From assembly GCA_965602015.1 (NCBI GenBank), contig OZ271918.1:2688001-2752000 (forward strand): 64,000 nucleotides of DNA, given 5' to 3'. The notes under the pieces were generated by a model. It worked only from the letters and a program-made list of their open reading frames with translations, did not search any database and was not told the origin of the DNA. The DNA is from Salinispira sp. GTDB taxonomy: Bacteria > Spirochaetota > Spirochaetia > DSM-27196 > Salinispiraceae. The number at the start of each line of letters is the position of its first letter. Within the stretch, counting starts at the first letter, position 1. The position numbers and the translations under genes are program-made. Below, one piece after another: positions 59,306 to 64,000 of the stretch.

Positions 59306-61432
59306 TCAGGCGTTCTGGCGTTCCCGGGCGAATTCCAGGAAGTGATCGCCGCTCAAGGGTTTGCTGTGATAAAACCCCTGGATAATATCACAATTATTGT
59401 TGAGCAGGAAGTTCAACTGTTCGGCATTATCCACGCCTTCGGCCACGACCCGGTACCCCATTCCCTGCACCATTGAAATAATGGCCTGCACCAGGGCGCT
59501 GTTCTGGCTGTCGAAGGGAAGGTCTATGACAAACGAGCGGTCGATTTTCACCGCCGCAATGGGAAGGCGCTTGAGGTATGAAAGACTTGAATAGCCCGTG
59601 CCGAAATCATCAATGGAAAATTTGAGGCCGATGTCCGCCATGTTCTGAAGTTTGCTGATCAGACCGTCCTGATCCTCAACCAGGGAGTTTTCCGTTATTT
59701 CAAGGTGGAGCGACCGGGGGTCGAGACTGTTCATCCTCAGGTTCGAAATAAGAGTGCGCTGGAGCTTACCGTCCCGCAGCTGCCGGGGGCTCAGATTAAT
59801 GCTCACCGGAATGCTCAACCCCCTCGAACGCCAAAGCACCAGGGTTTTGCAGGCCTCTTCGATGACCCAGGTACCGATGGGGATAATCAGTCCGGTTTCC
59901 TCGGCTACGGGGATAAACTCCGCGGGGCTAACGGACCCCAAAACCCCATGGTTCCAGCGCAGCAGTGCTTCGGCTCCGACAAGATTGCCGGCACCGTCCA
60001 GCTGCGGCTGATAATGAAGGCTGAGCTCTCTGCGATCGACCGCCTGACGCAGGTAATTAATCATCTGGATCTTGCCCACCGCCCGCTCCTGCATTGCCGG
60101 AGTGTAAAAACGGTAGGTGTTGCGGTCGAGTTTCGCTTCCTGGAGAGCTTGATCGGCGTGACTGGTAATATCCGCAATTGAAAGGCCGTCCCGGGGGAAC
60201 ATGGAAATACCAATGCTGGCGCTGAGATAGACGCTGTGCCAATCCCATTCGAATTGCTTCTGAAAAACTTCAAGCAGCCGTTCACTTATCATCGCCACAT
60301 CAAGTTCACTGCCGACCTCGGAAATGAGAATTCCGAACTCGTCGCCTCCGGTGCGGTACAACCGTCCCTGATTCCCCAGGGAAGCGGAAAAGCGCTTCGC
60401 GATGGCATTAAGAATTTCATTTCCCGCGTCATTGCCGAGGCTTTCGTTGATATTTCCGAAATAATCAATGTCTATCTGAAGAACGGCGTGAAGCGGTGTT
60501 TGCCCCCCAATAGCGCCCTGGTTACGGCATATTTCATTCAGTGCGCTGAAAAACTGACGCCGGTTTTCCAGTCTGGTCAAGGGGTCATGGGTTTCCAGAT
60601 AGGCAAGTTCAGACTCGATATTTCTCGTACGGCTCGCCCGGTCCAGGTACTCCCTCACCAGAATGAAGGCCATCATGATGGTCAGCAGGGTGAAGGCTGC
60701 GCCGAGGAAACTCTGTTCCAGCCCTCTCACGGGGAACATGTCCAGAATATAGACGGTCAAAAGGAGGGCCAGGCCGACGCTGATGCTGATGCGCAGCAGG
60801 AGGTCCCTTTTCAAGCCCTTGCGGAACAGGCTTATGGCCATGTAGTAGCCGGCGCCTGAAACAAGCAGGGCGTCGCGAATCCAGGCAAGGACTCCCCGTG
60901 ATGCCACACCCTCAGGGCCAATCGTCACGATACCACGGGGAAACGCCGCCCCGGCGCCGATGAGGACGGCGGACGCGATCATTACGGTCACCAGAACCAG
61001 CTTGTCTAATCCGGTCATGACGGTCTGCGTCGCGGAGCTGATCAGGGAGCCTGTTTGCGCTACCTGTAATTCGGCGGTAAACAGATCCTCCCGACGGAGA
61101 TACACCAGCAGCGCGAACAGTAGAAGCATGGAATTAATGAGCAGGTGCTCCAGATTGTGAAGCCGCAATGACGAATAGGGAGTGCCGCCGGCGGCCTGAA
61201 ACAGGTTGTACATTTTAATCAATGGAAATGCGCCGGCCAGAGTGCTGATAAGCACAGCGACGAAATGGAACCACTTGCGGGATTTATACAGCAGGTAGCT
61301 GAAGAACGCCGTGGTGAAGAGGAGAAGCCCAATCTGTATGGACAGCCTGATTATGGCACCGATGCCGCCCGAGGAGAAAAAAGTATATATATTCACGAAA
61401 AAACGTTCCGATGAAGTACGCTGCCACCGCAT
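59306..61432 (-). CDS. Membrane-bound GGDEF-EAL protein
   Basis: About 7 N-terminal TM segments; RTGGDEF, EALLRW, DDFGTGYSS and EGVD motifs; start uncertain. Confidence 0.9.
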   Translation of the reverse strand: MRWQRTSSERFFVNIYTFFSSGGIGAIIRLSIQIGLLLFTTAFFSYLLYKSRKWFHFVAVLISTLAGAFPLIKMYNLFQAAGGTPYSSLRLHNLEHLLINSMLLLFALLVYLRREDLFTAELQVAQTGSLISSATQTVMTGLDKLVLVTVMIASAVLIGAGAAFPRGIVTIGPEGVASRGVLAWIRDALLVSGAGYYMAISLFRKGLKRDLLLRISISVGLALLLTVYILDMFPVRGLEQSFLGAAFTLLTIMMAFILVREYLDRASRTRNIESELAYLETHDPLTRLENRRQFFSALNEICRNQGAIGGQTPLHAVLQIDIDYFGNINESLGNDAGNEILNAIAKRFSASLGNQGRLYRTGGDEFGILISEVGSELDVAMISERLLEVFQKQFEWDWHSVYLSASIGISMFPRDGLSIADITSHADQALQEAKLDRNTYRFYTPAMQERAVGKIQMINYLRQAVDRRELSLHYQPQLDGAGNLVGAEALLRWNHGVLGSVSPAEFIPVAEETGLIIPIGTWVIEEACKTLVLWRSRGLSIPVSINLSPRQLRDGKLQRTLISNLRMNSLDPRSLHLEITENSLVEDQDGLISKLQNMADIGLKFSIDDFGTGYSSLSYLKRLPIAAVKIDRSFVIDLPFDSQNSALVQAIISMVQGMGYRVVAEGVDNAEQLNFLLNNNCDIIQGFYHSKPLSGDHFLEFARERQNA

Positions 61433-61506: not shown

Positions 61507-64000
61507 TCAGATTTCTATTTCGATGTCACCGTTCGGATAGGAGCAGCAGCTCAGTATGGTTCCCGAATCAGCGCTCCGTCGGTCGAGAATATTCGGTTCA
61601 TCCATTATTACCCGGCCGGACACCAATGTGCAGCGGCATTCGCCGCATCGTCCGACCAGGCAGTTGCCGCGCAGCCTCCGGCCGGCCTTTGTGAGTCCGT
61701 CCAATACGCTCTCTCCGGGATTTATGGTCACGAACGAATTGTCGGGCAAAAGCCGCATTTCAGCCCTGTGAGCCGGACGCCGGGAGCGGCTGTGCGCCGG
61801 GGTGAATGCTTCCCGGTGAATGGCGAGATCGCTGCCCGCTGCGGACAGTCCCGCGCTCATGATTTCGACGAAATCCGCTCCGCCGCATATATACGCCGTG
61901 GACAAGTCTCCGCTGAGATCCTGCACATCGGAAACATCGATTCGCCGTTGGTGAACACCTACTCTTCCTGCCTCAAACGCAGACAGCCAGACGGGACTCC
62001 CGCCGGCCGGGGCTGCGGTGCTCGGGCTCCCGGCGCTCGGGGCAGCAGCGTCCGGGGCAGCATAGCCCGGAGCTGTGGCGCCCGGGCTCCCGGCGCCGAC
62101 AAACAGGTCGATCTTTAGCCGAGGCAGTCGTTTGGCGATGGTTTCCAATCCGGAGTAAAACGGCCAGTATGCCAGATCGCCGGTGGCGACCAATAATCTG
62201 CCTCCCTTCTGAGGGACAGCCTCCAAGCTTCTGGCGTGCAGCATGGACAATACGGGAGCGAATCCCGCTCCCGCTGCGATAAACAGTTCTCCGGAAATCG
62301 AATTTTCTCCGAGGGTAAAATCGCCGTGAGCCGGTCCTCCCCGAAGCTTTTGGCCAACCCGGGCGTCCTCGGCAAAGAACTCCCATGCAAGCCCACCTTC
62401 CCTCCGTTGGATGACGATTGCGTCCCGGGGACAGGTCTCGACGGAATAGGCGCGAAGGAACGAACGGCCCCGGTGGGTAATGCGGAAGGTTATGCATTGT
62501 CCCGGTTTGGCAATCACCGCAGAACCGTCTGACCGGGAAATGCCGACCCGCAGGAACTCGTCGCCAAATCGCTCTATGTAATCTATTCGATAGAGCACGG
62601 GCACATCGGATGATCCTGATTTTTTTCGGAAGTACCAGGCTGCACCAAGAAATAACAACTCTCCGCCCACGCCCAGCGCCAAAATGCCCCCAGCCCTGGG
62701 ATCCCAGCCGTAGCTATGAAGACCTGTAGCCATCAGATTGACGCCGAACCAGGAAAACAATAGCACAATCAAGGATGCGGCCGAGCTCAGTGATAGGGCA
62801 TACTCGCTTAATTTTTCCCCGGGGCGGGCATGAAGAAGGAGCGAGAGCCAGATGATAAGAAGAAGTGCGGCATTCTCTTTCGGATCCCAACCCCAGAAGC
62901 GTCCCCAGCTTTGGTCGGCCCAAATTCCGCCGAGCATGGTGCCGACGAACATAAACAGCAGGGCCAGGCGGAGACTGAGCAGAAGACCGCGATATCTGGC
63001 AGCGGCGTTTCCCGGACCGTCGGGAGATCTGATAATGGAAACCGCATGGACATGCCCGATGGCCGAGGCAAGGAAAACCAGGGCATAACCGGTGATAATT
63101 ACCAGTACATGGACGCTGAGCCAGAAATTGCTGTCGAGAACGGCCTGGACAACTGCCAGGTCATCTCCGCCGGAAATAAATCCCGGTGAAACAAGAAGGA
63201 CAAGAGAAGCGCACAAAAGTACCGCCGCCTGCTGCCTCGAATTACGTACCCCCAACACGATCCCTGCTACGGGCATGAGAAAACCGACCAACAGCAGGCT
63301 GGAGTAAAGACTGGTGACCGGCGGCCTTCCGGTAATAAAAATGCGCAGCAGCAGTCCGGACAAGCTGAGCAGCACCCCAAGGGCGACCCCGGCAGGAGCC
63401 GCAGATTGCACTGCCCTCACCAACCATCGGCTTCCGGAGGTATATGCCGCGGGAGCCCTGTTGCGGGAAGCCAGGTAGATGTACATCAGCGCCGAGGCGG
63501 CAAATAGCAAACCCGCAAGCCGGTATGGCCGCAGATTTCGATACCATCCCTCGGCCCGCAGCCTGGCTGATGAGAGGTCGGTACTGTCTGCCTGAAGCGT
63601 TATTATGCGGGAAATATAGTCGGGGGATAAAATCCCTGAGGACTGGAGGATTGAGTCTCTATCGCTGGGAGGCAGGGAGGGATCGAGGGGATGATACCAC
63701 AGACCGTCTCCGCCGGGCATTACCCGGAGGGGATGCCCCCGGTAAAAATCCGGCTCAATCGATTCCGGATTATCGATCCTGAGAAACTCGAGACTCCCCG
63801 CCAATCGCAAAACAGTTTCGAGCCGGGCATCCAAAAGCAACAGTTCATCGGAAAGAGGATCCTCTCCCGGAGCTAGCCCAGCAGCCAGCGCGGCAATGTT
63901 CTCGATTGCCGGAAGAAAGTCCGCCGCCGAGTAACGCCCGGTCGGCCGATCCGGAAGGCCGATAAGGGTAAACAAGTCCGGATGATTGACCTTGATCACA
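61507..64000 (-). CDS. ccsA: Cytochrome c biogenesis protein CcsA fused to an FAD/NAD(P)-binding reductase and a 2Fe-2S ferredoxin; 5' end outside the window
   Basis: WADQSWGRFWGWDPKE WWD domain; His in WLSVHV, LLHAR and GLHSYG; then PGQ, RAYS, AAGAGFAP, YICG, EAF and C-x4-C-x2-C...C motifs, all in one frame. Confidence 0.85.
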   Translation of the reverse strand, partial: VIKVNHPDLFTLIGLPDRPTGRYSAADFLPAIENIAALAAGLAPGEDPLSDELLLLDARLETVLRLAGSLEFLRIDNPESIEPDFYRGHPLRVMPGGDGLWYHPLDPSLPPSDRDSILQSSGILSPDYISRIITLQADSTDLSSARLRAEGWYRNLRPYRLAGLLFAASALMYIYLASRNRAPAAYTSGSRWLVRAVQSAAPAGVALGVLLSLSGLLLRIFITGRPPVTSLYSSLLLVGFLMPVAGIVLGVRNSRQQAAVLLCASLVLLVSPGFISGGDDLAVVQAVLDSNFWLSVHVLVIITGYALVFLASAIGHVHAVSIIRSPDGPGNAAARYRGLLLSLRLALLFMFVGTMLGGIWADQSWGRFWGWDPKENAALLLIIWLSLLLHARPGEKLSEYALSLSSAASLIVLLFSWFGVNLMATGLHSYGWDPRAGGILALGVGGELLFLGAAWYFRKKSGSSDVPVLYRIDYIERFGDEFLRVGISRSDGSAVIAKPGQCITFRITHRGRSFLRAYSVETCPRDAIVIQRREGGLAWEFFAEDARVGQKLRGGPAHGDFTLGENSISGELFIAAGAGFAPVLSMLHARSLEAVPQKGGRLLVATGDLAYWPFYSGLETIAKRLPRLKIDLFVGAGSPGATAPGYAAPDAAAPSAGSPSTAAPAGGSPVWLSAFEAGRVGVHQRRIDVSDVQDLSGDLSTAYICGGADFVEIMSAGLSAAGSDLAIHREAFTPAHSRSRRPAHRAEMRLLPDNSFVTINPGESVLDGLTKAGRRLRGNCLVGRCGECRCTLVSGRVIMDEPNILDRRSADSGTILSCCSYPNGDIEIEI
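61990..62094 (-). repeat. Degenerate 15-bp coding minisatellite (7 x 5 aa)
   Basis: Encodes AGSPG-ATAPG-YAAPD-AAAPS-AGSPS-TAAPA-GGSPV. Confidence 0.75.

Follow-up and report, generated by a model that had tools for sequence, protein, structure and literature searches.

A probable CcsBA-type cytochrome c synthase fused to a predicted NAD(P)H-FAD-[2Fe-2S] reductase module in Salinispira sp. and related spirochaetes

Relation to described systems

Fused cytochrome c synthases of System II, CcsBA, are structurally known from Helicobacter hepaticus (7s9y/7s9z) and Bacteroides thetaiotaomicron (25vk). A gene at the end of a 64,000-nucleotide stretch of the Salinispira sp. genome (GCA_965602015.1, contig OZ271918.1, positions 2,688,001 to 2,752,000; the window) encodes a protein which shares with them the ResB-CcsA layout, a large periplasmic domain, the WWD motif and the pairs of transmembrane (TM-His) and periplasmic (P-His) histidines. 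Unlike both of these synthases, however, the spirochaete protein carries about 370 extra, predicted cytoplasmic residues, which consist of a part of the ferredoxin-NADP reductase (FNR) type and a ferredoxin. This module probably serves to reduce haem at the inner site of the synthase. In addition, the WWD motif ends with ENA/ENG rather than with ETW, as it also does in 109 of 110 unfused close relatives. The fused CcsBAs modelled in PMC10663686 are reported to have no distinguishing cytoplasmic domain.

The module itself has the same flavin-NAD-[2Fe-2S] order and the same predicted fold as reductases of the phthalate dioxygenase reductase (PDR)/PaaE/Hcr types (2pia, 7ylr). The self-sufficient haem enzyme CYP116B46 (6laa) carries a module of this kind as part of its chain, whereas here it is fused to a haem-exporting membrane protein; identity to PDR-type reductases and CYP116B46 amounts to 18-20%. 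The membrane core is the same as in CcmF of System I (6zmq), for which reduction of the substrate haem from an inner haem, with an unknown reductant, was proposed (PMC10663686). CcmF, however, has neither a CcsB part nor a fused reductase and obtains its haem from CcmE, while the CcsB part of the fusion protein supplies the likely first TM-His. Finally, in NADPH oxidases (NOX) and ferric reductases (SpNOX, 8qt6) a haem-containing membrane domain likewise precedes FAD and NAD(P)H domains that lie in the cytoplasm. Yet, the membrane domain of the fusion is CcsA and not PF01794, a ferredoxin is added, and the whole-chain fit is poor, with a root-mean-square deviation (rmsd) of 13-16 A.

Haem reduction and electron transfer are named as unresolved for CcsBA in a structural paper of 2026 (PMC13645880), and the published in vitro reaction was started with dithiothreitol (DTT) (PMC8112865). 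The fusion is a real variant of System II which makes this stated open question testable: in a natural CcsBA with a tethered reductase NAD(P)H could replace DTT for haem, and a clean deletion test is possible. If the role proposed below is true, it would name the kind of soluble partner to seek in organisms with a plain CcsBA and would offer a self-reducing synthase. No description of a CcsBA-reductase fusion was found in the literature covered (titles and abstract openings, with few subscription papers).

Architecture and fold of the fusion protein

In the following, G000 denotes the source genome (closed, 3.87 Mb, C1), other G numbers denote the compared genomes and P numbers protein clusters. 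The fusion gene (G000:C1:2749507-2753502, minus strand), of which G000 holds no second copy, encodes 1331 amino acids comprising CcsB, CcsA, an FNR-type FAD/NAD part and a [2Fe-2S] ferredoxin. It is cut by the window edge, with the last 830 of its 1331 residues (502-1331) lying inside. Its features are, in window positions unless a genome position is given:

61507..64000, minus strand: in-window part of the CcsBA-FNR-ferredoxin gene (residues 502-1331 and stop), an open frame
G000:C1:2752000-2753502, minus strand, outside the window: residues 1-501 (CcsB/ResB part, three N-terminal helices)
63538..63999, minus strand: distal part of the large periplasmic domain (residues 502-655), aligning with the fused CcsBA structures 25vk and 7s9y
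62632..63387, minus strand: CcsA membrane core (residues 706-957), by PF01578 (E 6e-17), 7s9y (E 1e-18), 25vk (E 2e-21) and fold
63109..63111, minus strand: His798, corresponding to P-His1 (H761 of H. hepaticus CcsBA) by alignment, kept in 24 of 24 fused rows
62875..62922, minus strand: WWD haem-handling motif, W861-E876, by alignment
62830..62832, minus strand: His891, corresponding to TM-His2 (H858 of H. hepaticus) by alignment, kept in 24 of 24 fused rows
62716..62718, minus strand: His929, corresponding to P-His2 (H897) by alignment, in the periplasmic loop ahead of the last helix
62620..62694, minus strand: last membrane helix (937-957) and basic RKK exit with a 7-base run, by sequence and model
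62299..62595, minus strand: FAD-binding barrel of FNR type (970-1068), in which RAYS retains S1020 while GxxS has become GLAW; by NCBIfam below cut-off, fold and alignment
61798..62289, minus strand: NAD(P)-binding domain (1072-1235), with G1080, P1083, C1206, G1207, E1231 and F1233 kept; by NCBIfam below cut-off, fold and alignment
61990..62085, minus strand: stretch rich in Ala/Pro/Ser that is inserted into the NAD domain (residues about 1140-1171) and exceeds in length its counterparts in relatives; predicted to be disordered (pLDDT <50)
61510..61755, minus strand: plant-type [2Fe-2S] ferredoxin (1250-1331) with C1281, C1286, C1289 and C1319 (PF00111, E 9e-9)

An earlier note on this DNA, made from the letters alone, had described CcsA fused to a reductase module in a single uninterrupted frame. 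This minus-strand frame, which ends at 61507, does contain every motif that the note quoted, and the fusion is real. It is, however, not a lone CcsA but a fused CcsBA: the ccsB/resB which was to be sought upstream turned out to be the N-terminal part of the same frame. From the Pfam domains expected by the note, Cytochrom_C_asm (PF01578, residues 731-929) and Fer2 (PF00111, 1257-1323) were found, in addition to ResB (PF05140, 78-325), but not FAD_binding_6 and NAD_binding_1, which gave no match at E<=0.1. The ResB/CcsB and CcsA domains both score above the Pfam cut-off, which is the layout of a System II CcsBA; TIGR03144 reaches 105 bits and thereby stays below its cut-off of 187.6. The FAD and NAD domains of this copy are matched by the NCBIfam models PaaE (6e-21), MmoC (2e-19) and BenC (9e-16), all far below cut-off, and PF00970 and/or PF00175 are on record for 19 of 23 fused relatives. 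PF01794, the membrane domain of NOX and ferric reductases, had no match in the fusion protein at E<=0.1, the membrane domain being PF01578.

Modelled with AlphaFold2 on a 23-row alignment (mean pLDDT 77.8, pTM 0.61), the last 830 residues exhibit the flavin-NAD-[2Fe-2S] domain order and the predicted fold of a PDR/PaaE-type FNR-ferredoxin reductase. Foldseek returned 7ylr, reductase parts of CYP116 enzymes and phthalate dioxygenase reductase as first matches. With VIA-align, the best fold match was to CYP116B46, namely to its reductase part, at Z 26.2 (rmsd 4.2 A, 305 residues), and benzoate dioxygenase reductase gave Z 25.0 (rmsd 2.4 A, 226 residues). The comparison with H. hepaticus CcsBA 7s9y yielded Z 25.5 (rmsd 11.3 A, 423 residues) and that of the CcsA membrane core with CcmF 6zmq Z 21.7.

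P-His2 sits in a periplasmic loop (PMC10663686). As this loop is followed by one more helix (937-957) and, in nearly all rows, by basic residues, the module would be located in the cytoplasm, on the side of the inner haem. Homology thus leads to the same placement that had been deduced in the earlier note.

Conservation of the module

For 23 rows the module could be compared (P0018, which ends out of frame, was omitted). S1020, G1080, G1207, E1231, F1233 and the four cluster cysteines are invariant in all 23 rows, while C1206 is found in 20 and P1083 in 22 of them. The RxYS, GxGxxP, CG and ExF motifs of PDR/PaaE-type reductases are present. The mean identity is 28% for the FAD, 29% for the NAD and 36% for the ferredoxin domain; the periplasmic domain has 28% and the CcsA core 49%. 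The ferredoxin with all four cysteines, as noticed from the sequence of this copy, is therefore a feature of the entire set. The NAD motifs that had been regarded as degenerate are, in contrast, near normal for the family: GAGFAP has the usual proline, and the residue after CG is S in 14, P in six and G in three rows. This copy deviates at a different position, as it has lost the serine of GxxS, presumably the flavin-phosphate motif.

Cofactor binding and an electron path from NAD(P)H via FAD to [2Fe-2S] within the module are predicted by homology. Distances between modules track those between CcsA cores (Spearman 0.69, 23 rows), and 25 fused modules form one side of a tree which included 10 other FNR-ferredoxin modules (support 83/90). 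This suggests that the module was kept and co-inherited with the CcsA core. Free FNR-ferredoxin genes of G079 and G017 (L193:1474-2667 and L194:1486-2703) were considered as detached modules and rejected, since they share 21-29% identity over long alignments, stand in another context and fall outside the fused clade. Both directly follow a gene for an FAD-oxidoreductase-like protein.

A probable cytochrome c synthase with candidate substrates

The residues required for haem attachment are preserved. H798, H891 and H929 align to H761, H858 and H897 of 7s9y, and His86 is the likely TM-His1; its alignment is weak, but it is kept in all seven rows that include CcsB. W828, A829, W833, K842 and E843 of CcsBA are essential for activity (PMC6299221), and all five are present as W861, A862, W866, K875 and E876. 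Other WWD positions differ, with N830 being replaced by Asp and T844/W845 by Asn/Ala.

The genome of G000 contains 38 open reading frames with a CXXCH motif (six frames), of which two look exported and coding. One is a membrane sensor kinase of 747 amino acids, in which a periplasmic CXXCH domain is combined with HAMP, Hpt and HATPase; the other, encoded by the adjoining gene, is a P460-family lipoprotein. Both belong to the following operon:

G000:C1:2794871-2798615, about 42 kb from the fusion gene: cheY-cheX-haem-c sensor kinase-P460 lipoprotein operon

The sensor weakly resembles GSU0582 (E 0.48), and its relatives match Tll0287 and Mcp40H below cut-off; for such haem-c sensor domains the properties of nitric oxide sensors have been reported (PMC12889525). 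Genes for a ResA-like protein and CcdA lie side by side at 2.21 Mb in G000. The likely clients are hence two mono-haem proteins instead of the multihaem cytochromes for which the earlier note had suggested to look, and the idea that CcsBA was repurposed for lack of any cytochrome c substrate was rejected, as two exported CXXCH candidates exist. In most cases across the order, the P460 gene comes after that of a CXXCH sensor, which is joined to a cyclase or to Hpt/HATPase. In 19 of 20 P460 copies matched by pattern, a lysine is located five residues past a conserved glycine, the cross-link position of P460 (PMC6427953).

Among 99 genomes of the order, 21 have CcsA, 20 have P460, 19 have both and 77 have neither, so that 19 of the 22 genomes with either gene carry the two together. 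The three mismatch genomes are 53%, 63% and 71% complete, and related genomes do not count as independent. In the closed genome G096, from the same genus, the flanking genes are joined without ccsBA, and P460 and the sensor domain are missing as well. The draft genome G092 also lacks ccsA and P460; its sensor copy (L238, G092:C1:277568-282328) is split into two frames and has CXXCD in place of CXXCH. Here a substrate apparently decayed once the synthase was gone, with the split possibly being a draft error. The intact synthase residues, the candidate substrates and the co-occurrence of CcsA and P460 together indicate that the fused CcsBA is most likely still a working synthase that attaches haem to CXXCH. 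The suggestion that CcsA was repurposed as an electron conduit is weakened by the intact synthase residues and by the fact that the gene and CXXCH substrates are present or absent together.

Distribution and history of the fusion

A homologue search with residues 780-1331 scored 7999 candidates, of which 2400 passed, and the best 120 were compared. Among these, 23 besides the query combine CcsA and reductase/ferredoxin in one chain (29-52% identity), while the other 96 are CcsA only. A second search, starting from P0006, added one further fused cluster. The 24 other fused clusters are a lower bound, and the architecture search proposed in the earlier note thus yielded at least 24 cases of the same CcsA-reductase fusion. 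An automatic JGI protein name already records the two-part architecture. CcsB is included in seven of 24 alignment rows; the others begin at the periplasmic domain, as in G034, which has a separate ccsB upstream.

Of the 21 genomes of the order with a CcsA match, five are fused (G000, G097, G098, G023 and G034), three have a long CcsA without the module (G079, G094 and G095) and 13 a short, ordinary CcsA. The module shares one frame with CcsA across three families of the order (f1, f3, f7). In G097 a TAA interrupts the periplasmic part; as the near-identical database relative P0121 does not contain it, this is probably an assembly error. G023 holds both kinds of synthase, the fused CcsBA-reductase and an ordinary ccsB-ccsA pair (L033, L041), together with two P460 genes, which might reflect a division of substrates, and 34 UroD-family matches. 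The reach of the architecture is limited to one clade, with five of 99 genomes in one order; 400 other genomes sampled from the phylum included 29 with CcsA, none of which extends into the module. No reductase/ferredoxin match was found in the flanks of unfused ccsA at 80 loci of other lineages (3/64 of the genome collection scanned). A metagenome pattern scan gave three loci, one fused (already known as P0021) and two unfused. On the two contigs with unfused ccsB-ccsA (L201:6860-14053 and L202) the pair stands beside a globin-like gene and two mono-haem cytochromes, and L201 also encodes a ten-CXXCH protein.

The 28 fused rows in a tree of 152 CcsA cores all fall into one clade (SH-aLRT 98, quick search), inside which the three long unfused rows are nested. 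Forcing the fused rows together without these three was rejected (p-AU 5e-5; 42 rows, with the group named after the tree had been seen). One gain and two losses within one spirochaete clade would consequently be the simplest history of the fusion.

Proposed role of the module and alternatives

In the mechanism that we favour, electrons would flow from NAD(P)H via FAD and [2Fe-2S] to haem at the inner CcsBA site. The predicted cytoplasmic module would reduce haem which is bound at or entering this site and thereby allow its export and attachment in the ferrous form. We regard this role, with the haem as a deduced acceptor, as moderately probable. The potential of NAD(P)H is approximately -320 mV. 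As the haem of CcsBA lies at -115 mV (PMC6299221), its reduction by NAD(P)H would be downhill, and it is ferrous haem that CcsBA attaches (PMC10663686). HemC, HemH (ferrochelatase) and UroD had no match in G000, which means that its haem must come from outside; HemC and HemH are missing in four of the five fused genomes. Scavenged haem is commonly ferric. In the proposed mechanism haem would arrive in this form by import, the haem-c sensor kinase and the P460-family lipoprotein would be the clients, and ResA/CcdA would reduce the thiols of their CXXCH motifs. As two branches have lost the module, it would be non-essential, possibly an aid under haem scarcity or oxidising conditions.

Several points weigh against this role. 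Each of its electron-transfer steps is inferred, characterised CcsBAs function without such a domain, and the His pairs have been credited with keeping the CcsBA haem reduced (PMC6299221). The module was lost twice (G079; G094 and G095). Concerning haem supply, the fused genome G034 has genes for HemC and HemH, located on the contig that also carries the fusion gene, and HemC is missing in all 16 unfused CcsA carriers, too; haem auxotrophy as the cause of the fusion was rejected, as it does not discriminate between the two groups. No clear haem importer was found in G000, which has no TonB receptor match and three unassigned iron/cobalamin-type ABC binding proteins. Furthermore, the Pfam flavin and NAD models miss this copy, which sits on a long branch of the module tree. 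The GxxS serine is present in 18 of 23 rows and is replaced by Trp in three, namely this copy and two close relatives. This Trp, the Ala/Pro insertion and the long branch make an altered or reduced activity in the branch of this copy possible.

G034 is also distinguished by a redox island on contig C17 (L034:160-16000), in which the split ccsB and ccsA-FNR-ferredoxin genes are accompanied by a divergent P460, a flavodiiron protein, a cupredoxin, ferrochelatase, HemL/HemB-like genes, HemC, a cytochrome b5-DUF2231 protein and UbiA. The same contig has two matches to cytochrome bd subunit I, for which no match exists in G000; H-NOX had no match in nine genomes.

Alternatively, CcsBA could build the haem-c sensor and the P460 lipoprotein and then act as an NAD(P)H-fed wire, which would lead electrons from the module across its own two haem sites, inner and outer, to an acceptor in the periplasm and keep both proteins reduced (e.g., by a reset of the P460 or the sensor haem). 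This would turn a haem exporter into a NOX-like transmembrane reductase tuned to a gas/redox sensing circuit, but it appears unlikely. Transfer of this kind has been shown for NOX-type proteins, in which a two-haem membrane domain is likewise combined with a cytoplasmic FNR part; SpNOX was one of the structures matched by the fold of the FNR part, and CcmF has been proposed to pass electrons outward from its inner haem, with an unknown reductant (PMC10663686). The ordinary ccsB-ccsA pair which G023 has besides its fusion would also fit, as would the signal-peptide MsrB gene that is divergent from the fusion in G000, G097 and G098, three genomes of one family. However, msrB is not adjacent to the fusion in G023 and G034, and 81 of 99 genomes have close relatives of MsrB, among them the closed G096, where msrB stands at the locus without ccsBA. 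As MsrB relatives are thus widespread and kept when ccsBA is lost, the wire loses its obvious acceptor; an MsrPQ-like service to the neighbouring MsrB was rejected on the same grounds. Moreover, CcdA, present in all five fused genomes, already covers thiol reduction, the same sensor-P460 pairs are kept by unfused relatives, and the membrane core contains no fusion-specific, relay-like aromatic residue (24 fused versus 110 unfused rows).

The module might also act on the supply side, by reducing haem on a soluble carrier or importer for release, or by serving another cytoplasmic partner, with the fusion only keeping it close to the entry vestibule. Soluble partners are accessible to a terminal ferredoxin. 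The absence of HemC and HemH from four of five fused genomes would agree with such a function, and a cytoplasmic vestibule and delivery domains have been proposed for CcsB/A (PMC10663686). Yet, no conserved carrier or importer gene lies beside the fusion at six loci (G000, G097, G098, G023, G034 and L203), and G034 has its own ferrochelatase. We consider a role on the supply side improbable.

It is likewise rather doubtful that the reductase is an uncoupled passenger or fading, at least in the branch of this copy. Two module losses, long branches with altered motifs in P0001-3, P0012-13 and P0024, and the absence of about 35 residues of the FAD barrel from P0019 would be in line with this. On the other hand, all 23 rows agree at nine catalytic or ligand positions despite a mean identity of about 28-36%, conservation of the module equals that of the periplasmic domain, and one frame is retained in genomes of three families. 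The chance that an assembly artefact joined two genes is negligible: although the junction carries an A7 run at 62620-62626 (the last base of R959 and K960-K961), and although the contigs of three of four sequencing runs that span it without an indel all stem from one sample, possibly the source, independent homologues carry the same fusion, in at least 24 other clusters from four sources and, with CcsA and module in one frame, in four other genomes.

Neighbourhood of the locus

Downstream of the fusion gene, a membrane GGDEF-EAL gene (window 59306-61432, minus strand) starts 74 bases after the stop, and a promoter-like match at 10 of 12 positions (consensus match only) lies at the end of the fusion. 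A similar GGDEF-EAL gene flanks msrB in G096. Rfam yielded no match in 20 kb. On the other side, outside the window (G000:C1:2753723-2772750), the signal-peptide MsrB gene is followed by an Asp/Asn-type hydroxylase, a phosphopantetheinyl transferase and a fatty-acid/polyketide-like cluster. This cluster, named by eye, comprises ketosynthases as well as HMG-CoA-synthase-like and enoyl-CoA hydratase-like genes and is interrupted by IS elements. The region is partly syntenic in G098 and G096.

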